In this document: positions 2,175-62,508 of the stretch, piece after piece
Layout: the number at the start of each line of letters is the position of its first letter
Position numbering within the stretch: position 1 is the first letter of the stretch
DNA from: Bacilli bacterium
GTDB lineage: Bacteria; Bacillota_I; Bacilli_A; RF39; UBA660
Direction: 5' to 3'
Assembly: GCA_028707455.1 (NCBI GenBank)
Contig: JAQWAY010000001.1
Location: 9,764-73,763, forward strand
DNA: 64,000 nt
The notes under the pieces: generated by a model
Database searches by the model: none
What the model was told of the DNA's origin: nothing
What the model saw: only the letters and a program-made list of their open reading frames with translations
Program-made: the position numbers and the translations under genes

Positions 2175-2290
2175 AATAACACTTCCCATAACTGCGATAT
2201 TATATCACAAATTTTATAAATAAGTAAAGCCTTTATTTTTATTATCTCCAATATTCACTTTAATATAATATTTCCCAAAGAAAAAGAACA

Positions 2291-2968
2291 CTATAAATTA
2301 GTATACTTTCTTCTTATTTCCCGATAATCTTTTTTATGCTCTTTTATCAACCGTTTATAACTAGATGAACTTTGTTGATAAGCAGAAAAATCATAATATC
2401 CTTTGGATTTAATATGAATACTAATAATAAAGTTATATATATTATCATTTAAATCCTTATATATACATAATATACGATTATGATCTTCTATAATAACACC
2501 ATCAATTTCTTCTACTAAATTAATAATTCTAGCTTGTATATTTTTTGTATCATTAGATGCAATATCAAAGGTTGTAAATAGTCTTTGATTTTTTTCTTTA
2601 TTACTAGCTTGTGTTCCATGAACTTGTTCACCAGTATATAAATCATAAAACTTAATATTTGAAGCAACACCATATCCAATATTATTAATAATTAAGTTAA
2701 CATTAATATCATTACTCGTTTCAGTAATATCAACATTTGTTTCAGGAAATGACTTTTGATAATTTTTCCCAATTGGTGTTAAATGATATTTAAACTTATC
2801 AATAGAATTAATTGCCTCTATTTTATTCAAAATGAGATATGGTTTATGATTTTCCCTATTTTCATTTTTAATTCGATTATTTACGGTATATACAGTCGCA
2901 AATACGGGAATAAAGATTGACAGAATTGGTAATAAGATATTTAACCATAGTAATGATAAATCCCCCAT
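2291..2968 (-). CDS. Hypothetical protein with an N-terminal transmembrane anchor
   Basis: The ORF has a hydrophobic N-terminus (LLWLNILLPILSIFIPVFATVY) and no recognisable catalytic motif. Confidence 0.4.
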   Translation of the reverse strand: MGDLSLLWLNILLPILSIFIPVFATVYTVNNRIKNENRENHKPYLILNKIEAINSIDKFKYHLTPIGKNYQKSFPETNVDITETSNDINVNLIINNIGYGVASNIKFYDLYTGEQVHGTQASNKEKNQRLFTTFDIASNDTKNIQARIINLVEEIDGVIIEDHNRILCIYKDLNDNIYNFIISIHIKSKGYYDFSAYQQSSSSYKRLIKEHKKDYREIRRKYTNL

Positions 2969-2975
2969 AATTCAC

Positions 2976-3419
2976 CTACTTTATATAATTATTTAATATA
3001 TGTTCCATCGTAATTTTAATATCTGGAAACACATTAATATTTTCTAAATCATTTCTTGAAAACCATCCGATTTCTTGACTTTCTTCTGGTCCAAATTCTA
3101 TTTCATCCTGTGTAATTGGTACACCAGCATAAATAATATCAATATGAATATCACCAGCAGCATTACGATTCTTTTGAATACCTAAAGGTTTTATAAAATC
3201 ACTTTCCCTAGGAAAACTTTCGCCTAATAATCTAACTCTAACGCCTGTTTCTTCATATGCTTCTCTTAATGCTGTTTCTTCAGGTGTCTCATCATCTTCA
3301 ATGTGTCCACCTGGTTGTACCCATTTGTTAAACTTTGGATGTTTCACTAATAATATCTTTTTTGTAATTGGATCAACTACAAAAACTGATGCACAAAAAT
3401 GTCTTGTCATACCACTCAC
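2976..3419 (-). CDS. NUDIX hydrolase
   Basis: A Nudix box is present: GGHIEDDETPEETALREAYEETGV (GX5EX7REUXEEXGU). Confidence 0.8.
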   Translation of the reverse strand: MSGMTRHFCASVFVVDPITKKILLVKHPKFNKWVQPGGHIEDDETPEETALREAYEETGVRVRLLGESFPRESDFIKPLGIQKNRNAAGDIHIDIIYAGVPITQDEIEFGPEESQEIGWFSRNDLENINVFPDIKITMEHILNNYIK

Positions 3420-3490
3420 CTAGTATTAGTATAACAAAAAAAAACATAATTAGAAACAACTTATCCTTTTTGGTTGTCTAATTATGTCAA

Positions 3491-5203
3491 TTATCTCTTT
3501 TTAGGTTCATTAGGTAACATCTCATTACGTTTTTGAATTATATTAGATAACAATGATTTTTTGTAATATCCTTCTGAATATTGTTTACTAAAATACTTAT
3601 CACATACTAGCCAATCAGCATTACTAATATAACCATTATACTTATTTTCTAATGCTTGATTATTTTTAGTAATAGAATCTAATATTTTAGCATCCACTGC
3701 GCTTCTTGCTCTTTTAATATCATTAATATATAATTTATTACACATATCAATAATATATTTATCAGACTTATTAGCAACACTAAGATAAATTAATTCATCA
3801 TAAAGTTTAAGACCATCATTTATTGCTTGGTTTAATATTTTTTGAACTAATTTAAATTCATCATCATCGAGTTTTTCAGCATATAGTTCTTTTTGAAAGT
3901 TTTTTATTTCATCATTAAATTTGTGTTCATCATTTATTAACTCCAATAAGTTTTTTCTAGTGCCGTCCATATTGTATTCTCTTTGTAATGCACAGTACTC
4001 ATTTAAACATTCTGGTACTTCTAAAATAATTCTATCAACCATATTTTTTGTCGATTCCTCTAGATGCCTTCTTTTCTCACCATCATAGTGAACTCGTGTG
4101 TTTTTAAGGGCCTTTTCATATTCAAGTTCATCTTTTAATTCTTCTGATTTTAATTTATATAAGGTAGGAGAATACTTTTTCAATGTTTTTAAAGTTTGTT
4201 CTATTTCATATATTTTGGCATCCATTTCAATTGACATTGCAGAATAATTATTTTTATAATAATCGGTCGTAACATTATAAATAAGGTTTTCTCTTGCCCA
4301 TAATAAAACATCAAAACTAGGGTTTCTATTTTCCTCAAACATTTTAGCTTGTAATACATGACGCATTTCATGATGACATGTTTTTATTATTTGTGGTAAA
4401 ATTTTTTCTTTTTTTCCTCTAAAATCAGTTAAATAAATAGCTAATGGGTTAATAGAAACAATATATAAAGTAGTACTACCATCTCTAAAAATAGTTGTCT
4501 CGGTTCCTAAAACCTTAATAAAATTATTGATTTTTATTAAGGATTTGGGTTTTAATAAAGAAATTTTTTCTTTCTTTATATACATTCTTAAATTAACTAT
4601 ATTAAGATTTATCTTTGTATCCATTTTGTAAGCTTTTTTATAAGACAAATATTTCATAATCCAAAGATCTTCAGAAACTGTTAATTCTGTTTTTTCATCA
4701 ACTAAATAACTAAAATAACGTTCACAAAAATTAGCCTCCAAGGGATTACCATAATCGATTATCTTAACATTATCAATAGCATATTTATTTCTTGCTTCTT
4801 TTGCTAAATTACTATATTTAATTTTTGCTAAATATTCCGTATATTCTAAACCTAATAATGGTTTAAATAAAATATCATAATATTTCTCATACAAAGATGA
4901 TTTGATAATTAAAGGATTAAATAAACATTTAATATCATGTGACTTATTGATCAACGGTGCTATAACCTTATCAGTGTATGATACTAAGCTTTTTAAATAT
5001 AATTCTTTTATACTTATTAATTCATGATTACAATAATTACATCCTATTCCATCACATAAAGGGCAAACCTTTACCTCTTCATCATCATTCATATAATTAA
5101 TATAATCCATCAACTTATAACTATAACGCTCAAGTTTTATTTGGTCTACGTTGGATAACTTTTGATAATTATTAATTGAGTTAATAAAATCTTGTAAGTT
5201 CAT
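3491..5203 (-). CDS. Hypothetical cytoplasmic protein with a CxxCxGxG zinc-finger-like motif and an HExxH metallopeptidase-like motif
   Basis: The 570-aa ORF has no TM segments. It carries CPLCDGIGCNYCNH near the N-terminus and CHHEMRHVLQAKMFEENRN, which fits an HExxH(+E/N) motif of the WLM or DUF45 kind. Confidence 0.45.
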   Translation of the reverse strand: MNLQDFINSINNYQKLSNVDQIKLERYSYKLMDYINYMNDDEEVKVCPLCDGIGCNYCNHELISIKELYLKSLVSYTDKVIAPLINKSHDIKCLFNPLIIKSSLYEKYYDILFKPLLGLEYTEYLAKIKYSNLAKEARNKYAIDNVKIIDYGNPLEANFCERYFSYLVDEKTELTVSEDLWIMKYLSYKKAYKMDTKINLNIVNLRMYIKKEKISLLKPKSLIKINNFIKVLGTETTIFRDGSTTLYIVSINPLAIYLTDFRGKKEKILPQIIKTCHHEMRHVLQAKMFEENRNPSFDVLLWARENLIYNVTTDYYKNNYSAMSIEMDAKIYEIEQTLKTLKKYSPTLYKLKSEELKDELEYEKALKNTRVHYDGEKRRHLEESTKNMVDRIILEVPECLNEYCALQREYNMDGTRKNLLELINDEHKFNDEIKNFQKELYAEKLDDDEFKLVQKILNQAINDGLKLYDELIYLSVANKSDKYIIDMCNKLYINDIKRARSAVDAKILDSITKNNQALENKYNGYISNADWLVCDKYFSKQYSEGYYKKSLLSNIIQKRNEMLPNEPKKR

Positions 5204-8510: not shown

Positions 8511-9143
8511 TTATAAATCATCTACTTTTTTATCATAATAATCTTCTGGATTAACTGTTCTTCCATTAATAATTAACTCAAACAATAGATGACTACCTAA
8601 ACTTTTATTTAGATTTGATGTTCCACTTTTGCCAATTACATGGCCTTGTTTAATAGCATCATTTTCTTTAACCGTAACTTCACTTAAACTTTGATATACA
8701 CTAATTACTTCATTACTATGACGAACTTGAATAACATTACCTAAAGTATTATCTTTTTTTACTTGAATGACGGTACCATCTAGAATAGCCACAACATCAA
8801 AGTCTTCTTCTCCACCATAAATGATACCAGAACTTTGTAAATAAGTTCCTTCATGGTAAATAAGAGCATCCTTTTGTGTACTTTCCTCAGCTTTGTAATC
8901 GTAATACTTTTTTAAGACCTTAATCTCTTTATCTATATACGGTTTCACTACTACTTTACTAGTACTAACAACTGGCACATCATCATCAAAAATTGTTTTT
9001 GATACGTAATTATAATCATCCTTATCCTTAAAATCACCTTTAAAAAACATACTTTCGATAAGATAAATCGATGTAAGCAAAATAACAGCAGATATTCCAT
9101 AAATAGTTAAGATGGCTGACTTCTTTAATCTTGTTTTTTTCAT
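8511..9143 (-). CDS. SpoIIQ-like membrane protein with a degenerate M23/LytM domain
   Basis: It has an N-terminal TM segment and a C-terminal LytM fold, but HEGTY replaces HxxxD and SHLLFE replaces HLHxE, so the catalytic residues are lost. Its position, spoIID then M23 then spoIIID then mreB, matches clostridial spoIIQ. Confidence 0.55.
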   Translation of the reverse strand: MKKTRLKKSAILTIYGISAVILLTSIYLIESMFFKGDFKDKDDYNYVSKTIFDDDVPVVSTSKVVVKPYIDKEIKVLKKYYDYKAEESTQKDALIYHEGTYLQSSGIIYGGEEDFDVVAILDGTVIQVKKDNTLGNVIQVRHSNEVISVYQSLSEVTVKENDAIKQGHVIGKSGTSNLNKSLGSHLLFELIINGRTVNPEDYYDKKVDDL

Positions 9144-9196
9144 AATTTCACCTCTATTAAAAGTGTGGACAATTATGAGTTATTTATACAAGATTT

Positions 9197-10108
9197 TTAA
9201 ATTTTTTTAATTTTAGTACCTTGATAATAATGCTTTAATATTTCATCATAACTATAACCCGCTTTAGCCATTCCTAAGGCACCATATTGGCTCATTCCAA
9301 CACCATGACCATATCCTTTAGTAGTTATAGTAACCTTATTATTACTGTTTTTAATAGTAAAATAATTAGACCTTAAACCTAGTTTAGATTGAACAACATT
9401 ACCATCTAGTATAGTTCCATTTATTTTAATTTTTTTAATTCTTCCTGTACTAGTAGTAGTTACATTTTCCACTTTTAAAGCATCACTATAATTTAGATTT
9501 AATTTATTATAAAATTCCTTTAAGCTATAACTACAATAATCAGTATATACAGGAGATACATCACGATCCCATAAAGATGATACACTTCTTAAATATGGTA
9601 ATTTATTATTAAATATTTCCTCACTATTTTCAGTCATACCGGTACTAGTAGAGAAAAAGAAAGCATATACTACCTGACCATTATAATCTAAGTATTCCCC
9701 ATCAGTTTCAATAACTGCTGTTTTTAACTTATTAATATTATCAGTATAATATTTTCCCCAAGCAGTCTTTAAATACTCTAAATCAAAATAAACTTGATTG
9801 GTAACAGTATCAACTAAATCATAATTATTTTTAACATTTTCTTGCATTTTATTCATTGCATAACTACGAGCAGCAACAGCTTGTGCTTTTAATGCTTCTA
9901 AGTCAAAATCAACTGGCATTTCTCCAGCTAATACACCAACAATGTATTGTTCAAAAGGCACTTCTTCTATTGTCCCATTAGTTCTTTTTATTCTAACAAT
10001 CATATTTTCATGATACTCAAATTTTATTTCATCATCACGAATAAAAATATTTACAATTATTGTTGGTATTAGGAAAAAAAGTAAAGAAAAAAGTAGTATT
10101 TTCTTCAT
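9197..10108 (-). CDS. spoIID: Stage II sporulation protein D (SpoIID/LytB lytic transglycosylase family)
   Basis: It has a signal anchor and SpoIID-domain motifs (AQAVAARSYAMNKM, GYGHGVGMSQYGA). Confidence 0.8.
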   Translation of the reverse strand: MKKILLFSLLFFLIPTIIVNIFIRDDEIKFEYHENMIVRIKRTNGTIEEVPFEQYIVGVLAGEMPVDFDLEALKAQAVAARSYAMNKMQENVKNNYDLVDTVTNQVYFDLEYLKTAWGKYYTDNINKLKTAVIETDGEYLDYNGQVVYAFFFSTSTGMTENSEEIFNNKLPYLRSVSSLWDRDVSPVYTDYCSYSLKEFYNKLNLNYSDALKVENVTTTSTGRIKKIKINGTILDGNVVQSKLGLRSNYFTIKNSNNKVTITTKGYGHGVGMSQYGALGMAKAGYSYDEILKHYYQGTKIKKI

Positions 10109-13881: not shown

Positions 13882-13901
13882 AAAGAGCAAATGCTCTTTT
13901 A
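13882..13901. terminator. Perfect hairpin AAAAGAGCAaatGCTCTTTT at the 3-prime end of the giant gene
   Basis: A palindrome flanked by A and T runs overlaps the stop codon. Confidence 0.5.
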
Positions 13902-16900
13902 ATTATTGTTATGTATTATATCACTTGAAATTATACTTGTGTTTCCAGATATATCTTTTGCATATATCCATAATTTCCAATTAAGAATTCCATCTCCTAA
14001 AAGTCTTCTTTCAAAAATTGTGTTGTTTTCGAAAGTTGATGCAAGATTCTTCCACGCCCATTCTTTAGGCGTCCAATAAGGATTTTCTGACCAAATATAT
14101 TTCAATTCAGAAATTGCATCTTTATCTTCAACATTAACTAAAATATCAACATCCGAAAATGGTATTGTTATACAACCTAGCCATCCACATTTTTTATTAC
14201 TACCTCTAGTATATATTGGATCATTTATTTTTATAGTAGGAACAGTTGTATCCACTACACTAACAATTGTATTCTTTCCTAATGATCTAATTTCACCTTT
14301 TTCAGTACTTAGTACATATTGATATTCTAATTTATAATCTCCCTTTTGATCTTTATTAAATCTATTAGGAAGAGGATTTATAAAAAATTTTTCATCTTCA
14401 CTAATTGTAACTGTAGCTTGTGGTGCAATAAAGTCTTCCCCAAGTTCATGTTCAAAATTTTCAGGAGCAGTTACTAATGGTCTAATAAATACTAATCTTT
14501 CCTTTGTAGCTGTATTACCTGCACGATCAGTAGCTTTATATGTAATAGTGTATACACCTGCTACCTTATCATTAATACTACCTTCAGTAGTTACTTCAAT
14601 TTCACCATCAGCATTATCAGTAGCTGTAGCCCCATGTTCTACATATGTAGATTTTCCATAATCATATGTATAAGACCCATCTGATACTTTTAGATTAATA
14701 ACAGGTAATGTATTATCAATATTAAATGAATTAGTTCTATAATATATGATATTACCAACTTTATCTTCTATCATAAACCACAGATAATATATTCCGTTTG
14801 GATTTGAAATAACTTCTTTTATATTTTTGGGATATTTAACAAAATTTGTTGAACCATCTGTATTAATAATGATAGTAAATTCACTATCTTCAGGTTGTTC
14901 TGCAGAAGTAGTCCATACGTATTTAATACCTGCATTTGCGTTTAATCCTTCTTTTGCATTTACAGTTATTCTCGGACGACCACCTTGACCCGAATCCATT
15001 ACAGGATCAACTTTACCATTATTTAATACTTTAGTTATTTTTATTACATCCCTATCAATTTTGTCAATTATAATTTCTTTTTTATTGATATTTCCTGCGA
15101 AATCTTTAACCCAAATATTTACTGTTTGATTTTCAGTATAGGTTGCTGTTGTTTTTGTTCCCCATGTAGTTCCACCATCAAATGAATATGGTGATTCTGC
15201 AAGCATTTCACTATTATCCGTTGCATTGATAGTTAATACTACATCTTTATTTGTTAAGTTTTCTGGATTTCCACTTATTGTTACATCTGGTAATGTATTA
15301 TCAATATTAAATGAATCAGTTCTATAATATAGTTCATTACCATACGCATCTTCTATTTTATACCATAAGTAATATATTCCAGTGATAGGCCTCTTAAAGA
15401 AATTTCCTGATGTGTTAGCATTTACCCAGTTATATTCTTTATTCATATTTACTGATTTTACAAATTCTTCATCCATTGGTTGTTCTGCAGAAGTAGTCCA
15501 TACATATGAAGTTTTATATCCCGCTGTATATGTCTTCACACGAAGCCTGATATCATTATCAGCACCTTTTATTGGTAGTGTACTTCCATTACCAGTATTT
15601 CCACCAATTTTTATTATTTCTATTACATTTCGATCAATTTTATCAATTACAATTTCCTTTTTACTGATATTTCCCACATAATCCTTGACCCAAATATTTA
15701 CCGTTTGATTATCAGCGTAGCTTGCTGTTTTTTCTGTTCCCCATGTAGTTCCACCATCAAATGAATATGGTGATTCTGAAAGCATTCCGCTATTATCTGT
15801 TGCATTGATAGTTAATACTACATCTTTATTTGTTAAATTAGTAGGATTTCCAATTACATTAACCACTGGCGCTTCATTATCTAAATAAAACTCATATTCA
15901 GTTTCATTGCCAGCTTTATCTCTTAATATTAAGGTATTATTACCAGCTTTTCCAAAATATTTATTTGTAGAAACAGCATTGATATCTCCCCAGCTATTAC
16001 TAGATTTATCTAATAATGTACCATTCAAGTCAGCCTCTTTCAAGTTTTCATCAAATAGTTTAAATGATATATTACTGAAATATGGTTCATTACCTATTGA
16101 TTCCTTTTTAACTGTTATAGTTGGTTTTATACTATCAAATATAATATAATCTCTATTTGATACAGTTGTATATTCTTTTCCTTCATTACCAGCAATATCT
16201 TTATATCCACTAACTTTAAATGGTATATTTTCATTTTGTTTTAAATTGCTAGCAACATCTTCAGTTATAGTTAAATAATATGCATAATAAACATTACCAC
16301 TAGTATCCTTTGATACAGTGTACTCTTTAATGGTGACACCAGCTATTGTAACAACCGGGAATGTAGATAATTGTTCAGTATAACTTAGTTTCAAGTATAG
16401 TCTTGTTCCAATAGTTGCGTAATGATCAGTTGCATTGATTCTAAAAATTCTTTGATTTGCATTAGGAGCTGTTTTATCAATTGTGAAAGTTACTGTTGTA
16501 CTATGATTTGCTTTATCTGTTACAGTTATTGTATGTGATCCTTCTTCTGAAACAACTCCTGTTCTAGGGGTTTTTTCATCATAAGTGACACCATCAATAA
16601 TTATATTTCTTACATTTTTTTCAATGATTTCATACTCAATATCAACATTGTATAAACCATTATTTTCTACCCCGTTAATAACTGGAGCAACTTTATCTAT
16701 TCTTTTAACTTCAAAGTTAATAGTATTTGGATTACCTATTAAATCTTTTATATCAACTGAATATTTACCATTTTCAGCAAATACCCTTGTAAATGTTTTA
16801 CTATTTACTCTATTCCATCCTTCAATATCTTGGATTTCTTCATTTGCCGTTAAAGTTACAATTACGTCATTAGGTGTTACAGCATTACCATTATTATTTG

Positions 16901-18992
16901 AGAATGTTTTTTCAGCCAGTGGAGCTGTTTTATCCACTATAAAATTATATGTGTTTAAATTTCCAGCAGCATCACTAAAATCAATGCTTATATCCTTTGT
17001 TCTATAGTAATAATTGTAATATGTATTATTACCCAATGATCTCCATTCACTCTTACTTTTTGTAAAACCTGTAACATCTTCACTAAATTGAATAGTTACC
17101 TTAATTCTACCCTTTTCTTTAGCTTCGTATGTTTGATTAAAATCAATAACTTCAGGACGTTCATTATCAAATACAAATGGTCCAGCATTACTTACTATTC
17201 CGTTATTAGCGTTATCTTGAGCGTACACCCATAAATAATAAGTTCCATTTAAATTAGATGGTGCCACTGCTATTAATGGATCTTCTTCGTTATTTTCTAA
17301 ATGAGTTTGAATACTTATAGACTCAATACCTTCAGAAGCTTCTAACCATTGATATCTTAATTGTTTGATACCACTTAAATCACTTGCACTTAAAGTTACA
17401 TTATGATTTTGGCTTGATTCACCACTTGTACTTCCAAAATTAATTGTTGCTTTTGTCTTATCAATATTAGTTATTTCATATGTTACTTCATCTGAAATAT
17501 TTCCAGCAACATCTTTTACTCTTACGGTTACTGCTTGATTCTTTTTAAATGTTGCAAAATTTTCAGTTTGCCATTCGCCACTATTAAATTGGTATCCTGC
17601 AATACCACCGTGATCTTCAGCATTAACTGTTAAAATTATATCTTTATTAATTGGATTTTCATTGTTTGAAGTTATAGTTATATTTTTGGGTGCTTCATTA
17701 TCTAAATTAAATCCTTTTGTTCTTACTACTTCTTGATTCCCAGCCTTATCAGTAGCGACTACAACTAAATAATAAGTTCCTGTTTCTCCTTTAGGAGTAT
17801 ATAAATCTTTTGTATTTTCAAAGGTCGCAAATGATGAATCATTTATGTCAATATTTTGATTTTTTGTCCATACATATTTAAGTGAATCTGTATTGAAACC
17901 ACTTAAATCATCAGTAACAGTTGCTGCTCTTGCATGAGCTTTACGATAGTGATTTGAATAATTAACATAATTTAATTTAATTATTGGTGCTAATTTATCA
18001 ATATTATCGATAGAACCTTCTGATAAAGCAACAGTTTTTACTATATCATGATTAAAACTAACACATGCTACATAGTTACCATTTTCAGTAGCTACATATG
18101 AATATTCATCAGTTATTTCTTTAGCAACCATTTCTAGAAGACTAAAAATACTCATTGGTTTAGTATCTTCATCTTCTACTTCACAAGTGTTTCCTTGCTT
18201 AAATTCAATATTTTGAATTAAGTCTTTATCATAATTTGAAACATTTAATTTTAATGTAATATCTTTATTAGTCCATTCTGTAGTGCTTGGATCTAATGTT
18301 AAGATTGCATTATTAATTGCTTCTATTTCTTCTTCTAATTTTGTAATATCATTAAGTAAGTTTTGAATTGAATTTACTGATGTTAATTTATTACTAACAT
18401 TAGCTTTATTAAGTTCATCTTCATTACCAATTATTCCTTGTAATTGATTTAATAAATCTTTTAAATTATTATTAAGATTTTCATCCTCTGAATAATTACC
18501 TAAAAGTTTATTACTATTAGTAATTGCATTACTTAACTTTGTATTAATCTTCTTGTCAATACTGTTGATTAGATTAGAAATTGTAGTAGTTTGTGTATTA
18601 ACATTTGCTTGAGTAGTATTTCTAGTATTTAATAAAGTTTTAGCTTTCTTAATTTCTAGTTCAAGCGAATTTAGTAAACTTACTAATTCTTCATCTTCTG
18701 TTTCTATTTTTTCATAGCTGTCGGTGCTATTTACGGCTGTTTGTAAAGTTCCATAGTTGGTAACTACGTTTTGTTGTACTGGTACAACATTTTTTTCTTC
18801 TTCTGTTTTTTTAGTTTCTTCTTGAGGTGCTTTTTCATCATCTTTTTCCTTTTCACCATTGTTATTGTCTTTTTCATGGCTATCTGGATCTTTGACTTCA
18901 TTTAAATCTTCGTTTGGATTAGCAAACGTAAATACAAACAATCCAATTAATACGAACAACACAATAGCGAAAATTCTTTTCCTGTTTATCAT
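13899..18992 (-). CDS. Giant surface protein of 1697 aa: N-terminal signal anchor, coiled-coil region, and more than 10 cadherin-like/Ig-like beta-sandwich repeats
   Basis: An N-terminal hydrophobic anchor (IFAIVLFVLIGLFVFTF) is followed by a K/E/N-rich coiled-coil segment. Repeated modules then carry YYLxVxAxDxAGN and FN(I/L)DN(E/T)(A/L)P junction motifs reminiscent of cadherin DxNDN linkers. There is no LPXTG motif. RBS: GGAGGAAAATTAT then ATG. Confidence 0.6.
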   Translation of the reverse strand: MINRKRIFAIVLFVLIGLFVFTFANPNEDLNEVKDPDSHEKDNNNGEKEKDDEKAPQEETKKTEEEKNVVPVQQNVVTNYGTLQTAVNSTDSYEKIETEDEELVSLLNSLELEIKKAKTLLNTRNTTQANVNTQTTTISNLINSIDKKINTKLSNAITNSNKLLGNYSEDENLNNNLKDLLNQLQGIIGNEDELNKANVSNKLTSVNSIQNLLNDITKLEEEIEAINNAILTLDPSTTEWTNKDITLKLNVSNYDKDLIQNIEFKQGNTCEVEDEDTKPMSIFSLLEMVAKEITDEYSYVATENGNYVACVSFNHDIVKTVALSEGSIDNIDKLAPIIKLNYVNYSNHYRKAHARAATVTDDLSGFNTDSLKYVWTKNQNIDINDSSFATFENTKDLYTPKGETGTYYLVVVATDKAGNQEVVRTKGFNLDNEAPKNITITSNNENPINKDIILTVNAEDHGGIAGYQFNSGEWQTENFATFKKNQAVTVRVKDVAGNISDEVTYEITNIDKTKATINFGSTSGESSQNHNVTLSASDLSGIKQLRYQWLEASEGIESISIQTHLENNEEDPLIAVAPSNLNGTYYLWVYAQDNANNGIVSNAGPFVFDNERPEVIDFNQTYEAKEKGRIKVTIQFSEDVTGFTKSKSEWRSLGNNTYYNYYYRTKDISIDFSDAAGNLNTYNFIVDKTAPLAEKTFSNNNGNAVTPNDVIVTLTANEEIQDIEGWNRVNSKTFTRVFAENGKYSVDIKDLIGNPNTINFEVKRIDKVAPVINGVENNGLYNVDIEYEIIEKNVRNIIIDGVTYDEKTPRTGVVSEEGSHTITVTDKANHSTTVTFTIDKTAPNANQRIFRINATDHYATIGTRLYLKLSYTEQLSTFPVVTIAGVTIKEYTVSKDTSGNVYYAYYLTITEDVASNLKQNENIPFKVSGYKDIAGNEGKEYTTVSNRDYIIFDSIKPTITVKKESIGNEPYFSNISFKLFDENLKEADLNGTLLDKSSNSWGDINAVSTNKYFGKAGNNTLILRDKAGNETEYEFYLDNEAPVVNVIGNPTNLTNKDVVLTINATDNSGMLSESPYSFDGGTTWGTEKTASYADNQTVNIWVKDYVGNISKKEIVIDKIDRNVIEIIKIGGNTGNGSTLPIKGADNDIRLRVKTYTAGYKTSYVWTTSAEQPMDEEFVKSVNMNKEYNWVNANTSGNFFKRPITGIYYLWYKIEDAYGNELYYRTDSFNIDNTLPDVTISGNPENLTNKDVVLTINATDNSEMLAESPYSFDGGTTWGTKTTATYTENQTVNIWVKDFAGNINKKEIIIDKIDRDVIKITKVLNNGKVDPVMDSGQGGRPRITVNAKEGLNANAGIKYVWTTSAEQPEDSEFTIIINTDGSTNFVKYPKNIKEVISNPNGIYYLWFMIEDKVGNIIYYRTNSFNIDNTLPVINLKVSDGSYTYDYGKSTYVEHGATATDNADGEIEVTTEGSINDKVAGVYTITYKATDRAGNTATKERLVFIRPLVTAPENFEHELGEDFIAPQATVTISEDEKFFINPLPNRFNKDQKGDYKLEYQYVLSTEKGEIRSLGKNTIVSVVDTTVPTIKINDPIYTRGSNKKCGWLGCITIPFSDVDILVNVEDKDAISELKYIWSENPYWTPKEWAWKNLASTFENNTIFERRLLGDGILNWKLWIYAKDISGNTSIISSDIIHNNN
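14700..15880. repeat. Tandem near-identical duplication (2 x ~590 bp) inside the giant surface-protein gene
   Basis: DNA at about 14703-15290 is highly similar to about 15289-15880. For example, ggtaatgtattatcaatattaaatgaat at 14703 matches the run at 15289, and a long near-identical run ...ccccatgtagttccaccatcaaatgaatatggtgattctg... occurs in both copies. The protein copies are NLTNKDVVLTINATDNS...YSFDGGTTWGT...NIWVKD. Confidence 0.8.
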
Positions 18993-26215: not shown

Positions 26216-26749
26216 CTACAAATATTTTTCAATTAGTTCTTTAATAAAAAACTTATATTCAACTTTATCATTTTCCGTTCCTTCTAATAAACATAATGGT
26301 GGAAAAAGAACACACCACCAGTTATCACCTTCACCTTTTCCTAAGGTTACTAGTAGTGATTCATAGTATCCCTCACTATAGACTACATCGTTGAATTCCT
26401 TTTCCGGAAAGTAATTATATCCAAAATTAACTTGATATTTTAATGGGTAATTTTCACGCGTTAATAAACTGTTAATTGACATATCGATTTTTTCTAAATT
26501 ATCATGAATAATACCTCTTGCATCAGCTATTCCTTTGGTATTTTTAAGTAAATGATACATTTCATCTTGTAGTAAAATCGATACTTTTTGTTTGATCGTT
26601 TGATCTTTCTTACTATTACTATTAGGAACTACTCTAAGCCTAATAGCTTCATCTGGAATAACTATTTTATTTGCATAAACATTACCTATAAGTAAATAGA
26701 AAGATAAAATACCTAATAAAATAATGAGCGTTTTATTCATCAATATCAT
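26216..26749 (-). CDS. spoIIR: Stage II sporulation protein R
   Basis: It has a signal peptide and the IRLRVVPNSNS and NWWCVLFPPLC motifs conserved in SpoIIR. Confidence 0.7.
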   Translation of the reverse strand: MILMNKTLIILLGILSFYLLIGNVYANKIVIPDEAIRLRVVPNSNSKKDQTIKQKVSILLQDEMYHLLKNTKGIADARGIIHDNLEKIDMSINSLLTRENYPLKYQVNFGYNYFPEKEFNDVVYSEGYYESLLVTLGKGEGDNWWCVLFPPLCLLEGTENDKVEYKFFIKELIEKYL

Positions 26750-37716: not shown

Positions 37717-37745
37717 TAAAAAAAAGTAATTAAATTACTTTTTTA
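37717..37745 (-). terminator. Hairpin AAAAAAAGTAATTaaATTACTTTTTT overlapping the noc-like stop codon
   Basis: A perfect 11-bp stem is followed by a T run in minus-strand orientation. Confidence 0.5.
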
Positions 37746-39417
37746 TTTTAAATATTACTTGATATATATCTTCAAAATCTATTTCTTCAATTTCAACATC
37801 AAATCCAATACCTTCTACCTTAGTACCACATTCTCTAATAATATCTATAGCATCCTTTAATACTTTACCTTCTTGAAGTATTGGTTCAACTATTTTTTCC
37901 TCTTCAATATCTTGATTTATATTATTAACTGGTTCAATTGCCTCATCAGTAGTTGATGCAATTGGCTCAAAAGGATTATTGAAAATTGGGTTTAGTGTCT
38001 CAACCTCAGTAGTTATTTGTGGTTGATCTTGTTCTTTTGGTTGCATTGGAATATCTATAGGTTGAACTGGAACTTCCACTGGTTGTGCTTGTTCTAAAGG
38101 TTGTACTAATGCTTCCGCTGGCTGAAAAGGTACATCACTTGGAAGTGGTGTTTCTATAATAGGCGAATCATTATTAACTGATTCTGCTGGTTCTGTTTCT
38201 GGTTCTTCATTTAAAATATCAAAGAACTTTCCTGGAGTTAATATGTTTTCTGGTTGTTCTACTTCAAAATCAAAACCAACATTATTATTATTATTATTAT
38301 TATTATTTTGAGCTGCAAAAGCTGAATCTGGCTCTAATAATGAGTTAACGTCAGCTAAAGGTTTATCTTCATTTATATTTTTAGCTTCCGTTGCAATTTT
38401 TTCTATATTCATAAAACCAGGATTAATTTCATTATCTATTTGTTCTTCAATAAAAATAGGTTCTTCTGATTTAGTTTCCTCTACTTTTTCTTCTGGTTGT
38501 TCTACAATAGGAGTACTTGGTAGATTAATTGATTCTTCAATATTCTCATTTATTATAGGTGAAGATGGAAGATTAACTGATTCTTCAACTTTATCATCTA
38601 TTATTGAAGAAGTTGGTAAATTTAAATTAGATGGAGTATTAAAAATATCAACTGTTGGTTGTTCAATATTATTATTCATTGAGTTATTCCTTTCTTCAAT
38701 TGGTCGTATTCCTAAAATGGAATCAACCGTTGGTGAAAACGTATTTTCTTCTGTTGGTTGTTCAAAAGCACTTACATCTAACACTTCAACTTCATCGGAA
38801 GAAACAACATCATTTTGATTCAATATTTTATCAATTTCGTCATCTGTTTTTCTAACTGTTAGTCTATTATCTATTATTTTATTTAATATTTCTATTTGTT
38901 GACTACTCTTATTAAGTCTTAAAATAGATCGTGCATGTCTTTCTGATATTTTTCCTTCTAATAATGCTTCTTGGACATCTTCATGTAAATTTAATAATCT
39001 TAATTTATTAGCTATTGTTGATTGCTTATTTCCTAACTTGCTAGCTAATTGTTCTTGAGTAAACCCCATATCTAAAATCTTTTTATATGATATAGCTTCT
39101 TCAATTGGTGTTAAATCTTGTCTTTGAACATTTTCAATTAAGGCTACTTCAGCACTATCTTTATCATTTAAATCAGTTATAATAGCAGGTATACTATTTT
39201 TACCAGCTAAAACACTAGCTTTATATCTTCTTTCTCCAGCTATTATTTCATATTTATCACCAATTGCTCTAACCACAATAGGTTGAATTACTCCATGTTC
39301 TTTTATTGATTCAGATAATTCATTTATTGCTTCTTCGCTAAACTTAATTCTTGGTTGAAAACGATTTGGTAAAATATCCGCAAGATTTAATTCAGTTATT
39401 CTTTTCTCAATATCCAC
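37735..39417 (-). CDS. noc: Noc-type ParB-family nucleoid occlusion protein homolog with an atypical ~370-aa acidic low-complexity C-terminal extension
   Basis: Residues 1-190 form a ParB N-domain plus HTH: PNRFQPRIKF, GERRYKA, and GNKQSTIANKLRLLNL...ISERHAR. From memory these match B. subtilis Noc (PNRFQPRTIF; QSTIANKLRLLKL) better than Spo0J (PNPYQPRKHF). The gene lies directly downstream of rsmG, as noc does. The rest of the protein is a P/E/Q/N-rich disordered region with a poly-Asn run. Confidence 0.7.
   Translation of the reverse strand: MDIEKRITELNLADILPNRFQPRIKFSEEAINELSESIKEHGVIQPIVVRAIGDKYEIIAGERRYKASVLAGKNSIPAIITDLNDKDSAEVALIENVQRQDLTPIEEAISYKKILDMGFTQEQLASKLGNKQSTIANKLRLLNLHEDVQEALLEGKISERHARSILRLNKSSQQIEILNKIIDNRLTVRKTDDEIDKILNQNDVVSSDEVEVLDVSAFEQPTEENTFSPTVDSILGIRPIEERNNSMNNNIEQPTVDIFNTPSNLNLPTSSIIDDKVEESVNLPSSPIINENIEESINLPSTPIVEQPEEKVEETKSEEPIFIEEQIDNEINPGFMNIEKIATEAKNINEDKPLADVNSLLEPDSAFAAQNNNNNNNNNVGFDFEVEQPENILTPGKFFDILNEEPETEPAESVNNDSPIIETPLPSDVPFQPAEALVQPLEQAQPVEVPVQPIDIPMQPKEQDQPQITTEVETLNPIFNNPFEPIASTTDEAIEPVNNINQDIEEEKIVEPILQEGKVLKDAIDIIRECGTKVEGIGFDVEIEEIDFEDIYQVIFKIKK
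38281..38307. repeat. (ATT)9 microsatellite, which is (AAT)n on the coding strand, encoding the poly-Asn run inside noc-like
   Basis: The run attattattattattattattattatt is in frame, so slippage would change only the Asn count. Confidence 0.8.
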
Positions 39418-39452: not shown

Positions 39453-39508
39453 ATACTATATATTGGGAAATATTACAATAGTTTTGGGAAATATTCTGTT
39501 TCTTTTTT
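39453..39508. promoter_or_regulatory. Three direct repeats TTGGGAAAT(A/G)TT, which are NBS half-sites GGGAAAT, in the noc-like promoter region
   Basis: Copies lie at 39453-39464, 39474-39485 and 39497-39508, spaced 21-23 bp apart, between the noc-like start codon at 39417 and the rsmG terminator. Confidence 0.6.
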
Positions 39509-39527
39509 GGGAAATGTTTTTTCTATT

Positions 39528-46255: not shown

Positions 46256-46448
46256 TAGTGGAAAAAAATACTCACAAATATGTTTTCCACAGTATTTTGT
46301 TTTTTTATTTATATATATTTAATATCTTTTAACTAGTTTTCCACAAATGTGTGGAAAAGTTATGAACTTTTATATGTTAATAACTTTTTTTCCACTTTGT
46401 ATGTGGAAAAGTGTCTTTTATGAATGTTTTTAATAACTTTTTTCCACA
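46256..46448. promoter_or_regulatory. oriC, the DnaA-box cluster upstream of dnaA
   Basis: At least seven TTTTCCACA, TTTTCCACT or inverse TGTGGAAAA boxes lie at 46256, 46284, 46337, 46349, 46387, 46402 and 46440, in both orientations. An AT-rich tract sits at 46300-46326. Confidence 0.75.
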
Positions 46449-46515
46449 TTTTAATTGTTATTTATGAAAAAATAAGGTAAAATGTTAATTAGATGGTGAA
46501 TTGAGGTGGTTTGGT

Positions 46516-49266: not shown

Positions 49267-49725
49267 ATGAGAGATAGTTACGAAATCAACAGAGGTACTT
49301 TAGCAATAATTCCAGTTACAGATAAAATTTCGCAAGTTATTGAGGATGAAAATCAATTTTTAGTAAGAAAATCAACCACTAAAATAATTGATGAGAGTTG
49401 TAAGTTTTTTGGAAGTTCGTATTTAGGCAGGAAAGATGGTACAAAAAGATTAATTGGTGTAACATATAAAGCACCAATTATTGTTTGTGAATCTAGTGGC
49501 ATAATCTTTTTTCCAACAAGCTCACCACGTTTTGATAATTGTCATTGGATATCATTAAATAACTTAAAAGATTACACGAAACATAAAACAGATATTAATA
49601 AATGTATTGTAACATTTAAAAATGACAAAGAAATACAATTAAATTTATCATTTTTTATCTTAGAAAATCAAATATATCGTGCAACTATGTTGGAATCTAA
49701 ATTAATGAAGCTAAAAACAGCCTAA
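49267..49725 (+). CDS. comK: ComK-family transcription factor homolog, short form lacking the C-terminal ~40 aa of B. subtilis ComK
   Basis: Conserved ComK blocks are present: YEINRGTLAIIPV, SCKFFGSSYLGRKDGT, FFPTSSPRFDNCHWIS and ENQIYRATMLESK. The comparison to the B. subtilis ComK blocks YEVNGATIAVLPE, SCRFFGSSYAGRKAGT and ENQVYRTAWLRTK is from memory. Confidence 0.65.
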   Translation: MRDSYEINRGTLAIIPVTDKISQVIEDENQFLVRKSTTKIIDESCKFFGSSYLGRKDGTKRLIGVTYKAPIIVCESSGIIFFPTSSPRFDNCHWISLNNLKDYTKHKTDINKCIVTFKNDKEIQLNLSFFILENQIYRATMLESKLMKLKTA

Positions 49726-52914: not shown

Positions 52915-55413
52915 ATGCAAGATAAGATGATAAATGTAAATATTACAACAGAAATGAAAACATCATTTTTAGATTATTCTATGAGTGTTATTGTATCAAG
53001 AGCAATTCCTGATGTTCGAGACGGTTTAAAACCAGTTCATCGAAGAATTTTATATACTATGTATGAAGAAGGAATGACTCCTGATAAAAAACATCAAAAA
53101 AGTGCAAATGCTGTAGGGGCAGTAATGGGGCATTATCACCCACATGGTGATTCAGCTATTTACGATACTATGGTTAGAATGGCTCAAGATTTTACTTACC
53201 GTCATGTTTTAGTAGATGGTCATGGTAACTTTGGATCTATTGATGGAGATGGTGCAGCAGCTTCTCGTTATACTGAAGCAAAACTATCTAAGATATCAAT
53301 GGAAATTTTAAGGGATTTAAATAAAAATACAGTTGATTTTTCTACAAACTATGATGGACAACGAAAAGAACCAACCGTATTACCATGTAGATTTCCTAAT
53401 ATTTTAGTTAATGGGAATATGGGAATTGCAGTTGGTATGGCAACTAATATTCCTCCTCATAATCTTGGTGAAGTAATTGATGGGTGTATTGCTTATATTG
53501 ATAATAGAGATATTACGATATTAGAATTAATGCAATATATAAAAGGTCCAGATTTTCCGACAGCAGGAACGATTTTAGGGAATAGTGGTATTAAAAAAGC
53601 GTTTGAAACAGGTCGTGGATCAATAACTATAAGAGGAAAAGTTAATATTGAAGAAAGTAATGGTAAAAATAGAATTATTATTACTGAGTTACCATATGAA
53701 GTTAATAAAAAGAATTTAATCACAAGAATTGCTGAATTAGTTAGAGATAAAGCTATAGATGGTATTTCTAATTTAAATGATGAATCAGCACTTGAAGGTA
53801 TTAGAATTGTAATTGATGTAAAAAAAGAATCAAATGCTAATGTAGTTTTAAATAACTTATATAAGCATACTCAATTACAAACATCATATGGAATAAACTT
53901 TTTAATGTTAGTTGATGGTAGGCCAAGAACACTTGATTTAAAAACAATTCTAGAAAAATATCTAGATCATCAAAAACAAGTAATCTATCGTAGATGTCAG
54001 TTTGATTTGAAAAAATGTCAAAATAGATTGCATATTTTAGAAGGTTTAAAGATAGCACTAGATAATATTGATGAAGTTATTAAATTAATAAGAGCATCAA
54101 AAAATGATGAAGAAGCCATCAATGGTTTAATTGAAAAATTCAACCTAACTAGAACACAATCAGAAGCTATCCTTGAAATGAAATTGCGTCGTTTAACAGG
54201 CTTAGAAAAGAGCAAGATTGAATTAGAAATCGAAGAATTGTTGAAGGAAATTCAAAAACTAGAAGAAATTATCTCTAGTGAAGAAAATATTTTAGCTGTT
54301 ATTAAAGAGGAATTATTAGAAATTAAAAATCGATATAATGATGAGAGAAGAACTATTATTGATATGACTTCTATAGAATATATAGAAGATGAATCATTGA
54401 TCCCCGTTGAGGATATTGTTTTAACTCTTACAAGTAAAGACTACATTAAAAGAATGAATAGTGAAGTTTATCGCACCCAAAATCGTGGTGGTGTTGGAAT
54501 CAAAGGAATGAGTACTAACGAAGAGGATTTTGTCGAAAATGTTATTTCTATGACAACTCATGATTATCTGTTATTCTTTACTAATAGAGGAAAAGTTTAT
54601 CGTATTAAAGGATATGAAGTCCCTGCATTTAATAGACAATCTAAGGGAATTCCTATAATTAATTTACTTCCATTAAGTGAAGGTGAAGTAGTAAATGTTA
54701 TGCTAAAATATGAAGAAAATGAAAATGTCGATAACATTGTATTTTGTACACAAAAAGGTTTAGTTAAGAGAACAAATATAAGTGAATTTGAAAGTATTAG
54801 AAATAACGGTAAAATAGCTATATCATTAAAAGATGACGATGAATTAATCTCTGTGAGAAAAACCACAGGTAATAGTGAAATATTAATTGGTACATCTGAC
54901 GGAAGAATGATTAGATTCGATGAAAATGAAATTAGAATAATGGGAAGAACAGCTTCTGGGGTTAAGGGAATAGATATTGGTGATGGTATCTGTGTTGGCT
55001 GTGAAGTTGTTAATGAAGGCCAAGAAGTATTAGTAGTCACTAAAAATGGTTATGGGAAAAGAACACCAGTTGAACAATATAGAATTACACATCGTGGTGG
55101 TAAAGGTGTTAAAGCATTAAATGTAACTGAAAAGAATGGTGATATCGTATCATTTAAAACTGTTGATGGATCAGAAGATTTAATGATAATTACTGATAGT
55201 GGTATTATTATTAGATTACCACTTGAACAAGTATCTACAACCGGTAGGGTTGCTCAAGGCGTTAAATTGATTAATTTAAAAGATGATCAAAAGGTAACTA
55301 CTATTGCAATTATTAAAGAAGATGAAGAATTAGATGAAGATGTTTCAAAAGAAGATAAAGATATAGAAGAATCTTTAAACGAAGTAACTGAAAATAATTC
55401 GACTGAAAAATAA
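52915..55413 (+). CDS. gyrA: DNA gyrase subunit A
   Basis: It has the active-site Tyr region AAASRYTEAKL and a C-terminal beta-pinwheel. It is 832 aa. Confidence 0.95.
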   Translation: MQDKMINVNITTEMKTSFLDYSMSVIVSRAIPDVRDGLKPVHRRILYTMYEEGMTPDKKHQKSANAVGAVMGHYHPHGDSAIYDTMVRMAQDFTYRHVLVDGHGNFGSIDGDGAAASRYTEAKLSKISMEILRDLNKNTVDFSTNYDGQRKEPTVLPCRFPNILVNGNMGIAVGMATNIPPHNLGEVIDGCIAYIDNRDITILELMQYIKGPDFPTAGTILGNSGIKKAFETGRGSITIRGKVNIEESNGKNRIIITELPYEVNKKNLITRIAELVRDKAIDGISNLNDESALEGIRIVIDVKKESNANVVLNNLYKHTQLQTSYGINFLMLVDGRPRTLDLKTILEKYLDHQKQVIYRRCQFDLKKCQNRLHILEGLKIALDNIDEVIKLIRASKNDEEAINGLIEKFNLTRTQSEAILEMKLRRLTGLEKSKIELEIEELLKEIQKLEEIISSEENILAVIKEELLEIKNRYNDERRTIIDMTSIEYIEDESLIPVEDIVLTLTSKDYIKRMNSEVYRTQNRGGVGIKGMSTNEEDFVENVISMTTHDYLLFFTNRGKVYRIKGYEVPAFNRQSKGIPIINLLPLSEGEVVNVMLKYEENENVDNIVFCTQKGLVKRTNISEFESIRNNGKIAISLKDDDELISVRKTTGNSEILIGTSDGRMIRFDENEIRIMGRTASGVKGIDIGDGICVGCEVVNEGQEVLVVTKNGYGKRTPVEQYRITHRGGKGVKALNVTEKNGDIVSFKTVDGSEDLMIITDSGIIIRLPLEQVSTTGRVAQGVKLINLKDDQKVTTIAIIKEDEELDEDVSKEDKDIEESLNEVTENNSTEK

Positions 55414-55417
55414 TATA

Positions 55418-55576
55418 TGTTTCACGTGAAACAAAATAATACATACAATGTTCCACGTGAAACTTTAATTAGTGAATCATTAATTATAAAAATTGTTTCA
55501 AAATTCAACGTTCCACGTGAAACAATTACAATTAGATATAAAATAACTAAAAAAAAGTAATGTTCCACGTGAAACG
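55418..55576. promoter_or_regulatory. Cluster of four parS centromere-like sites
   Basis: TGTTTCACGTGAAACA lies at 55418-55433, TGTTCCACGTGAAACT at 55449-55464, CGTTCCACGTGAAACA at 55509-55524, and TGTTCCACGTGAAACG at 55561-55576. All match the Firmicute parS consensus tGTTNCACGTGAAACa with 0-1 mismatches. Confidence 0.8.
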
Positions 55577-55619
55577 TTACTTTTTTATATACATTTATAT
55601 TCAAAAAACTAAAATTAAC

Positions 55620-55633
55620 ATTTCCCGGGAAAT
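55620..55633. promoter_or_regulatory. Noc-binding-site (NBS) palindrome ATTTCCCGGGAAAT
   Basis: It is a perfect 14-bp palindrome identical to the B. subtilis NBS consensus. It is a rare GC-rich word in this AT-rich DNA. Confidence 0.7.
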
Positions 55634-55680
55634 ATAATAAAAAATTTGATTTATAATTAGAAATAGTGTATCTTATATAA

Positions 55681-55753
55681 GACACAACATTTATGTTCGA
55701 ATCAGGTCAGAATCGGAAGATAGCAGCCTTAAGGACCTCTAAATGTGTGTGTC
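55681..55753 (+). ncRNA. ffs: Small (4.5S-type, minimal) SRP RNA
   Basis: It contains the SRP domain IV signature CAGGUCAG...AAUCGGAAGAUAGCAGCC...UUAAGG, which compares to E. coli GGUCAGGUCCGGAAGGAAGCAGCCAAGG. The terminal helix GACACAACAUUU/AAAUGUGUGUGUC is followed by CCUUUUUU. Its position next to tadA and dnaX matches Bacillus scr. Confidence 0.6.
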
Positions 55754-55767
55754 CTTTTTTATTGTAG

Positions 55768-61662: not shown

Positions 61663-62508
61663 ATGTCACAAAAAAGTTACGATAATAGTCCAACTTTATA
61701 TTTAATACCTACTCCAATTGGTAATATGGATGATATTACTCTAAGAGCAATTAATATATTAAAAGAAGTAAAAGTAATATTTTCGGAAGACACAAGAGTA
61801 ACTGGATTATTATTAAGTAAATTAGGTATTAAAAAAAAGACAATTGCTAATCATGAATATAATGAGAAAAAAAATATGGAATTAGCTATTAAATATTTAA
61901 ATAATGGTGATAGTATTGGTCTAGTTAGTGATCGAGGAACCCCCATTATTAGTGATCCTGGTTATGAAATAACTAAATATGTTATTGAACAGGGGTATAA
62001 TGTTGTTTCACTACCTGGAGCAACAGCATTAATCCCAGCTTTAACAGTTTCTGGAATCAGTCCGATGCCTTTTCTATTTTATGGTTTTTTAAATAGTAAT
62101 GAAAATAAAAGAATAAAAGAATTAGAAAATTTAAAAAATGTAAAGGCAACTATAATCTTTTATGAAGCACCTCATCGTATTCATAAAACGTTGGGAAATG
62201 TTTTAAATGTTTTTGGAAATAGGGAAATTTGTATTTCCCGGGAAATAACTAAAAAGCACGAAGAGGTTTATCGTGGAACTGTCAAAGATGTTTTAGAACA
62301 AATTGTTGACATTAAAGGTGAAATTGTTTTAGTTGTATCTGGTAATAATAAAGGGGAAAACTATGACAACTGTACACTTATTGAACATATTGAACAATAT
62401 ATTGCCGATGGTTACAAAGTTATGGATGCAATTAAGGCAGTGAGTAAGGATCGTAATCTTAAAAAAAGCGATGTCTATAATGAATATTTAAAATATAAAG
62501 GTAGATGA
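61663..62508 (+). CDS. rsmI: 16S rRNA (cytidine1402-2-prime-O)-methyltransferase RsmI
   Basis: It has the tetrapyrrole-methylase fold and LYLIPTPIGNMDDITLRA. Confidence 0.85.
   Translation: MSQKSYDNSPTLYLIPTPIGNMDDITLRAINILKEVKVIFSEDTRVTGLLLSKLGIKKKTIANHEYNEKKNMELAIKYLNNGDSIGLVSDRGTPIISDPGYEITKYVIEQGYNVVSLPGATALIPALTVSGISPMPFLFYGFLNSNENKRIKELENLKNVKATIIFYEAPHRIHKTLGNVLNVFGNREICISREITKKHEEVYRGTVKDVLEQIVDIKGEIVLVVSGNNKGENYDNCTLIEHIEQYIADGYKVMDAIKAVSKDRNLKKSDVYNEYLKYKGR
62233..62246. promoter_or_regulatory. Second NBS palindrome ATTTCCCGGGAAAT, inside the rsmI coding sequence
   Basis: It is identical to the 14-mer at 55620. Confidence 0.65.

Follow-up and report, generated by a model that had tools for sequence, protein, structure and literature searches.

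A lineage-conserved cluster of predicted ParB-loading sites with an adjacent Noc-binding site between gyrA and the SRP RNA gene in the origin region of an uncultured member of Bacilli

The 64-kb stretch of DNA analyzed here, hereinafter the window (64,000 nucleotides; positions 9,764 to 73,763 of contig JAQWAY010000001.1, assembly GCA_028707455.1), is the replication origin region of an uncultured, spore-forming member of Bacilli with a G+C content of about 27%, and our subject is a cluster of short palindromes in the spacer between gyrA and ffs, the gene for the small RNA of the signal recognition particle (SRP). The minus-strand genes follow the order rpmH-rnpA-yidC-jag-HD-mnmE-mnmG-rsmG, and the plus strand carries dnaA-dnaN-comK-recF-gyrB-gyrA, the palindrome cluster, and then ffs-tadA-dnaX-ybaB-recR-bofA-holB...rsmI-pth. 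The cluster of DnaA boxes upstream of dnaA, which starts at 46501, together with a switch of the GC skew near 46 kb, places oriC about 9 kb to the left of the palindromes; this agrees with an earlier note on this DNA, made from the sequence alone, which had put them about 9 kb from dnaA, and such an origin-proximal position is the one expected of a parS centromere. No mobile-element genes were detected near the array. The DNA traces to the fermentation metagenome SRR1562008 and to the NCBI MAG GCA_028684055.1.

The spacer contains four sites that correspond to the 16-bp palindrome tGTTNCACGTGAAACa recognized by Spo0J-type ParB proteins (parS) and one Noc-binding site (NBS), all packed within 217 bp (Table 1). 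The 14-bp core of parS, GTTNCACGTGAAAC, is exact in all four sites, which bears out the proposal in the earlier note of four near-perfect parS within about 160 bp of the gyrA-SRP RNA spacer. No further parS was found in the window at up to two mismatches, where shuffled sequences lead one to expect 0.09 by chance, along with 0.00 exact cores; over at least 80 kb around oriC, parS is confined to these four sites. They are spaced by 31, 60 and 52 bp, the spacers are mutually unlike, and Tandem Repeats Finder detects no array, so that the head-to-tail organization with one site per unit that is typical of a sopC-like iterated centromere is not seen in the window itself. The identical four-site layout is present in independent assemblies (ENA, Logan and JGI), and therefore the cluster is no assembly artifact. 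Position 2 of parS1 (55419) is polymorphic among these assemblies, with G in the window and one Logan assembly and A in those from ENA and JGI; A is the base that separates NBS from parS at this position.

Table 1. Features of the window that are relevant to the palindrome cluster (window coordinates)
Feature	Coordinates	Strand	Sequence	Remarks
Noc-type ParB-family gene	37735-39417	-		adjoins rsmG; 560 residues; ParB_N and HTH_ParB domains
Five DnaA boxes	46283-46448		TTTTCCACA	upstream of dnaA; taken as oriC
gyrA	52915-55413	+		left array boundary; its stop codon is the positional reference throughout the lineage
parS1	55418-55433		TGTTTCACGTGAAACA	perfect 16-mer; 4 bp past the gyrA stop codon
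parS2	55449-55464		TGTTCCACGTGAAACT	exact 14-bp core; one outermost-base mismatch
parS3	55509-55524		CGTTCCACGTGAAACA	exact 14-bp core; one outermost-base mismatch
A/U-rich hairpin embedding parS4	55551-55586	+		14-bp stem, A-run...U-run; dG -12.1 kcal/mol, z = -3.9
parS4	55561-55576		TGTTCCACGTGAAACG	exact 14-bp core; one outermost-base mismatch
NBS1	55619-55634		CATTTCCCGGGAAATA	perfect 14-bp core ATTTCCCGGGAAAT at 55620-55633
Small SRP RNA (ffs)	55676-55761	+		right array boundary; Rfam RF00169, 57.5 bits
NBS2	62232-62247		TATTTCCCGGGAAATA	within rsmI (61663-62508); perfect core 62233-62246

The conservation of the cluster was assessed with a GyrA-based scan that retained one genome per species and yielded 80 loci with GyrA identity of 62-90%; one contig stops inside gyrA, leaving 79 loci that reach the gyrA stop codon. 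Nearly all of these are labeled as metagenome-assembled genomes (MAGs) of uncultured Bacilli, Bacillota or Tenericutes, with a few labels evidently wrong, and two loci (L017 and L076) come from closed long-read genomes of about 1.52 Mb. With parS counted at one mismatch at most and the array zone defined as -100 to +3500 bp from the gyrA stop, we found 307 parS in the 181 kb of array zone (1.7 per kb) as against none in the remaining 1.12 Mb of flanks. At least one site is present in 70 of the 79 loci, at least two in 64 and at least four in 38, most relatives holding between 2 and 18, the maximum. The first parS starts at a median of 29 bp past the gyrA stop, and the array, which spans up to 3 kb, usually ends ahead of ffs/tadA where the contig runs on. 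The sister species L003, whose GyrA is 90% identical, has five parS in this spacer; parS3 and parS4 of the window each have an aligned core among them, although the flanks of the sites are unalignable. This confinement to the region past gyrA, with the cores retained and the spacers diverged, is the pattern expected of conservation under selection.

In several relatives (L009, L015, L029, L030, L053, L064, L065 and L076), the parS do form head-to-tail arrays of units with one site each. Many arrays are regular, among them those with units of 28 bp (4 copies, L029), 36 bp (6 copies, L053), 37 bp (7 copies, L015), 53 bp (11 copies, L065) and 74 bp (7 copies, L030). Within one array the spacers are near-identical, whereas between arrays the unit length and the spacer sequence differ completely, with the 16-mers alone in common; the arrays grow through tandem duplication of whole units. 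Such repeats break short-read assemblies, which explains why 30 of the 79 contigs extend less than 1 kb past the gyrA stop; the presence of the arrays in both closed long-read genomes shows that they are real. A CRISPR-like array was considered and rejected, since the spacers within an array hardly differ. In 90 of the 307 sites, one arm alone has C in place of T at position 5, where the consensus has N; this is the sole consensus position that ParB tolerates, and the change breaks the palindrome without compensation, which argues for recognition by a protein rather than formation of a hairpin. The asymmetric variants show a weak orientation bias (62 vs 28) that can be accounted for by duplication.

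The second kind of palindrome, the perfect NBS that the earlier note had placed 44 bp beyond the parS cluster, was confirmed at precisely this distance between the last base of parS4 and the first base of the NBS1 core (58 bp from center to center); NBS1 ends 12 bp ahead of a TTGATT hexamer located upstream of the SRP RNA gene. Two perfect copies are present in the window, where none is expected by chance, and thus the palindrome characteristic of Noc-NBS systems is represented. The juxtaposition of NBS and parS reported in the note stands, but it is no one-off: in the lineage arrays, perfect NBS are about 14-fold enriched (0.33 per kb in the array zone vs 0.023 per kb outside) and sometimes alternate strictly with parS. 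Such alternation is found in L076, L064, L062, L052 and L078, and in the closed genome L076 it takes the form of six units of 125 bp that each pair a perfect parS with a perfect 16-bp NBS; a parS-NBS center distance of 57-58 bp recurs in L076, L064 and L062.

The other copy, NBS2, encodes the I-S-R-E-I portion of the conserved ISREITK motif of RsmI and does so with rare codons, namely TCC (15 of the 892 Ser codons, 1.7%) and CGG (3 of the 549 Arg codons, 0.5%). The DNA of this site, about 6.7-7.1 kb past gyrA, is identical in 11 of the 17 relatives that encode ISREI. The rare codons and the conservation of the DNA among relatives show that the NBS is selected in this lineage, and in rsmI the selection acts at synonymous sites.

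The candidate reader of the NBS is encoded next to rsmG (Table 1). The claim that no Spo0J/ParB-ParA pair is encoded anywhere in the window is literally true, but it passes over this ParB-family protein of the Noc type. The first 200 residues of the protein match the Noc structure 7NG0 (3.7e-61, 209.8 bits) better than the Spo0J-type structure 6SDK (1.4e-48, 168.8 bits); its best matches in PDB are the Noc structures 7NG0 and 7NFU, and it carries the GERR and ENxQR boxes. The recognition helix reads NKQSTIANKLRLLN...SERHAR, with Q/K/N/R as specificity residues. The specificity set is RTAG in ParB and QKKR in Noc; R173 is invariant among parS binders, and the two bases specific to the NBS are recognized by Q173 and R201 (Jalal et al., PMC7383237). 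A parS-type recognition helix has Arg at position 173 and a small residue at 201. Under this rule, the protein, which combines Noc specificity residues with adjacency to rsmG, is predicted to bind NBS and not parS. The same helix, Q...K/T...R (Q173, K or T at 179, R201), is present in all homologs that are readable with this pattern (about 100 of the best 120), with no parS-type helix among them.

In other respects, the protein departs from typical Noc. The N-terminal amphipathic helix of Noc (residues 1-14) that targets it to the membrane has been described as "extremely" conserved and necessary (Adams et al., PMC4331003). In the protein from the window, the PNRFQPR motif is preceded by only 16 residues, and the upstream reading frame is closed by a stop codon 8 codons before the start, from which we conclude that this helix is missing; a similarly short N-terminus (14-17 residues ahead of PNRFQPR) is seen in 117 of the 120 homologs, which range from 407 to 824 residues in length. 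The NCBIfam model of Noc, TIGR04285, scores 277.7 bits, under the cut-off of 315, and instead of a full-length match, model positions 2-210 are matched and a C-terminal domain of 45 residues shows a weak alignment (E = 0.1) to the final 41 positions. Between these parts lies a low-complexity, disordered insert of roughly 300 residues, with nine consecutive Asn at one point. The disordered part of the homologs has two conserved short motifs, NPGF[MV][ND][IV] in 98 of the 120 (at about residue 331 of the window protein) and G[KR]FF in 87 (at about residue 395), which look like docking sites for partner proteins. The possibility that the membrane helix was relocated into the disordered region was examined by eye and with a hydrophobic-moment scan and received no support, as the surroundings of the motifs are acidic, unlike a basic amphipathic helix. 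Between rsmG and the Noc-like gene, just ahead of the start of the latter (39465-39515), there are three direct NBS half-sites, ATTTCCC in the minus-strand reading, 21-23 bp apart; at the equivalent place in L089 (9905-9960), where the ortholog is only 41% identical, GGGAAAT...ATTTCCC half-sites are found with a shared terminal ATTTCCCAAWATATAGTA. These half-sites may constitute an autoregulatory operator.

On the strength of the fixed position, exact cores and sequence comparisons outlined above, we consider it likely that the spacer is a chromosomal centromere in which four predicted loading sites for cytidine triphosphate (CTP)-dependent clamps of a canonical Spo0J/ParB are accompanied by one NBS for the rsmG-linked Noc-type paralog. 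The view of the earlier note that the cluster is a compact platform for ParB loading or nucleation near oriC is supported by the retention of the same position in about 70 of the 79 related genomes; the cluster would be a lineage-conserved loading platform and presumably the entry site for Smc. Several observations weigh against this interpretation. Neither a Spo0J-type (R173) ParB nor ParA (Soj) was found between -7.7 kb and +73 kb in window coordinates or in the 90 origin loci examined from this lineage, as assessed by tblastn and a Walker-A motif scan with contig extensions on both sides; the window itself has neither a Walker-A motif of ParA nor another ParB paralog. The Noc-type protein is devoid of the membrane-targeting helix. 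Finally, no parS was detected in 9 of the 79 loci; in six of these, the contig runs no further than 420 bp past the gyrA stop, and the other three (L042, L058 and L073) offer 1.9-10 kb of downstream sequence with no parS at one mismatch or fewer, L042 containing five parS-like sites at two mismatches.

Given that the canonical parS is kept exact and in multiple copies in more than 70 genomes, a Spo0J-type parB gene very probably exists elsewhere in the genome. No soj-spo0J pair is present around the Noc-like ortholog that is only 41% identical, and the rsmG-noc_like-uvrB synteny there is the same as in the window; the retention of this gene order at such a low identity places the departure of soj-spo0J from the canonical locus early in the history of the clade. 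In an outgroup MAG (SVAH01000003.1; L035, positions 447-5061), rsmG, a Noc-like gene of 491 codons, an SDR gene and dnaA are co-oriented, and their location on one strand indicates that the origin neighborhood is rearranged; soj-spo0J is absent from this segment too. A possible precedent for relocation is offered by Thomasclavelia (Coprobacillaceae), where soj-spo0J is located far from the origin genes, beside nrdDG-pssA-psd.

Searches for such a gene yielded candidates, none of which could be linked to the lineage. A metagenome scan for the R173 recognition helix with an AT-rich codon pattern returned 120 loci, all from other lineages; those with origin genes have the arrangement mnmG-rsmG-(noc)-parA-parB, and their MnmG is about 53% identical to that of the window, vs 76% within the lineage. 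The best tetranucleotide match, L170, proved to belong to Thomasclavelia/Coprobacillaceae. Three representatives at 50% identity, P0245 (phage- or plasmid-like), P0256 (a 641-kb Mollicutes-like genome) and P0243 (a canonical locus), had no link to the lineage, and a concatenated query of eight proteins gave nothing useful that would tie a ParB to it. The R173-type ParB of P0245 resides on a phage- or plasmid-like element that encodes RtcB, a ligase, a primase and many small open reading frames (gut metagenome contigs L213, 120 kb, and L214, 65 kb); this element occurs in 168 blocks of the collection, including BRZ gut samples that are rich in MAGs of the lineage.

A more far-reaching scenario, for which we see only a slim chance, is that the clade swapped dispersed parS and NBS together with Soj for a composite array on which ParB loads next to a remodeled Noc that has no membrane helix but a long disordered tail with the two docking motifs. 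The two proteins would form a single origin-organizing body and assume an anchoring role like that of ParA or RacA; taken to its extreme, this scenario would leave the Noc-like protein as the sole ParB-family protein, reading both palindromes. A related alternative, which we hold to be quite unlikely, is that the lineage lost Spo0J and that the long Noc-like protein, or a variant thereof, binds parS as well as NBS as a single-protein centromere or origin tether. The Noc-like gene is indeed the sole ParB-family gene found in about 80 kb around oriC and in the 90 origin loci, the strict alternation of parS and NBS in some arrays would fit one dual-specificity protein, and variants with dual specificity are known from mutational scans (PMC7383237). 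However, Q173 and R201 are present in every readable homolog, whereas the published parS binders keep R173 (PMC7383237); a single dual-specificity protein also fits poorly with the retention of two distinct, sharply conserved palindromes without intermediates; and relocation of the gene is simpler than loss of Spo0J, given that Thomasclavelia keeps soj-spo0J away from oriC.

The variable copy number and whole-unit duplication of the sites, along with the assembly breaks at the array, could also be read as signs of a selfish or accidental satellite that expands by slippage, or of a leftover centromere from an integrated plasmid or phage; in either case the array would serve no function for the chromosome. 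We find this very improbable because the position is fixed down to 62% GyrA identity with only the 16-mers in common, the four sites of the window are no tandem repeat, and the neighborhood is free of mobile-element genes; an origin of the array from a plasmid or phage was rejected, the searches having given no counterpart. Least probable of all is that the palindromes are nucleic-acid hairpins (stabilizers or terminators in the gyrA 3'-untranslated region, or DNA cruciforms) rather than protein sites: although they fall between the gyrA stop and the next promoter, and parS4 is embedded in a hairpin with a U-run, the invariant sequence in more than 70 genomes is the ParB consensus and shows no covariation, the changes at position 5 break pairing uncompensated, a perfect palindrome has no loop, the terminator scan came up empty and the arrays reach 3 kb. 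As a minor point, the parS4 hairpin may double as a weak gyrA terminator, a suggestion that we make with low confidence; the consensus terminator scan, which found no intrinsic terminator, did not call this hairpin because it contains too few G-C pairs.

Returning to the centromere with its ParB-loading sites, the mechanism can be envisaged as follows. ParB-CTP clamps would load at each parS and then slide a short way, so that four to eighteen loading sites within 0.16-3 kb would give rise to a single dense focus of ParB at a distance of 9 kb from oriC. It would serve both as the sole entry point of Smc-ScpAB and as the handle for origin segregation, with no ParA near the origin, as in Staphylococcus and Streptococcus, and with the ParB gene itself located elsewhere in the genome. 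The packing of the sites in less than 3 kb would provide for a high loading flux from one position and would avoid the Smc collisions caused by scattered sites. The Noc-like clamp would load at the neighboring NBS, such that the two paralogs would share the same origin-proximal stretch; lacking the membrane helix, the Noc-like protein probably tethers no DNA to the membrane in the known way.

Comparison with characterized systems shows both shared and distinct features. According to the literature, ParB loads Smc at parS and most bacteria cluster their parS (PMC8357415, PMC7333895); Anchimiuk et al. (PMC8357415) argue that scattered parS provoke Smc collisions, which tight clustering relaxes, and note that scattering is a peculiarity of Bacilli. 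In Bacillus subtilis, eight parS are scattered over about 0.75 Mb, many of them inside genes (PMC8357415). The parS/Spo0J/Smc-ScpAB system of this bacterium and the present one share the 16-bp consensus, the origin-proximal location of the sites and the origin synteny (rnpA...rsmG-noc on one side and dnaA-dnaN-recF-gyrB-gyrA-ffs-tadA-dnaX-recR on the other side); by contrast, all sites detected here lie in one intergenic spacer, within 0.16-3 kb and often as tandem units, and soj-spo0J is not at the canonical locus beside noc. For Staphylococcus aureus and Streptococcus pneumoniae, published accounts describe individual parS, few in number, rather than an array. The absence of ParA/Soj from the origin region, to which this comparison extends, resembles the ParA-less ParB-parS-SMC systems of these two bacteria, in which ParB-parS is presumed to act through Smc alone (PMC7333895).

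Caulobacter, Pseudomonas aeruginosa, Corynebacterium and Streptomyces similarly have several parS near oriC that form one ParB focus, as would be the case here. Their clusters, however, extend over 5-40 kb or more, lie beside parAB and contain no tandem repeats (PMC8357415, PMC4368675), whereas the sites of the present lineage are spaced by 22-130 bp, occupy the gyrA-ffs spacer and are interleaved with NBS. With regard to architecture, the head-to-tail units of 28-126 bp in the relatives, each with one 16-bp ParB-type palindrome, are similar to sopC. The sopC locus of plasmid F consists of 12 units of 43 bp with one SopB site each. Unlike sopC, the arrays are located on the chromosome, their sites conform to the parS consensus of chromosomes and no parAB genes lie beside them; the copy in the window is irregular. 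Finally, the Noc-NBS systems of B. subtilis and S. aureus have in common with the present one the exact NBS palindrome and the rsmG-adjacent ParB paralog with Q/K/-/R, but the proteins of this lineage contain a disordered insert of 200-500 residues with the two short motifs and no N-terminal amphipathic helix, and the NBS are concentrated beside parS instead of being only dispersed. Noc-NBS systems typically have NBS distributed over the chromosome except near the terminus.

Individually, parS, NBS and ParB-family clamps are known elements. In the literature that we searched, we found no case of a clade in which tandem parS arrays occupy a fixed chromosomal position between gyrA and ffs, no regular interleaving of parS and NBS in such an array, and no association of an array of this kind with a Noc paralog that departs from Noc in two defining respects. 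Reviews list as open questions why parS cluster and why their number varies (PMC7333895). Within Bacilli, which are cited as the lineage with scattered parS (PMC8357415), this clade is a natural counter-example that represents the opposite extreme. Because the locus is fixed and the copy number varies from 2 to 18 by tandem duplication, the dose and spacing of ParB loading can be compared between close relatives. Furthermore, the interleaved NBS and the Noc without a membrane helix suggest that a single stretch of DNA can be acted on by two CTP clamps of the ParB family, an arrangement for which we found no earlier description. On the practical side, the arrays should be kept in mind as the cause of breaks just past gyrA in short-read assemblies.

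Several further features of the region deserve mention. A ComK-family gene (49267-49725) is located between dnaN and recF, in the same place as in the relatives L089 and L035; ComK is the competence regulator of B. subtilis, and its origin-proximal position is unusual. On the minus strand (13899-18992), an open reading frame of 1697 codons encodes a protein with immunoglobulin-like surface-protein domains, within which the NCBI assembly of the same organism breaks. The sporulation set includes spoIIR, spoIID, spoIIID, spoVT, bofA and cotJB/cotJC (26216-26749, 8511-10108, and the flanks in L083 and L087), and these genes are kept although the genomes of the relatives are small (about 1.5 Mb). 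Small phages of Clostridium perfringens (about 18 kb; OP894055.1, NC_017980.1 and relatives) weakly match the parS1-parS2 stretch (E = 6e-3) and may carry parS-like words.
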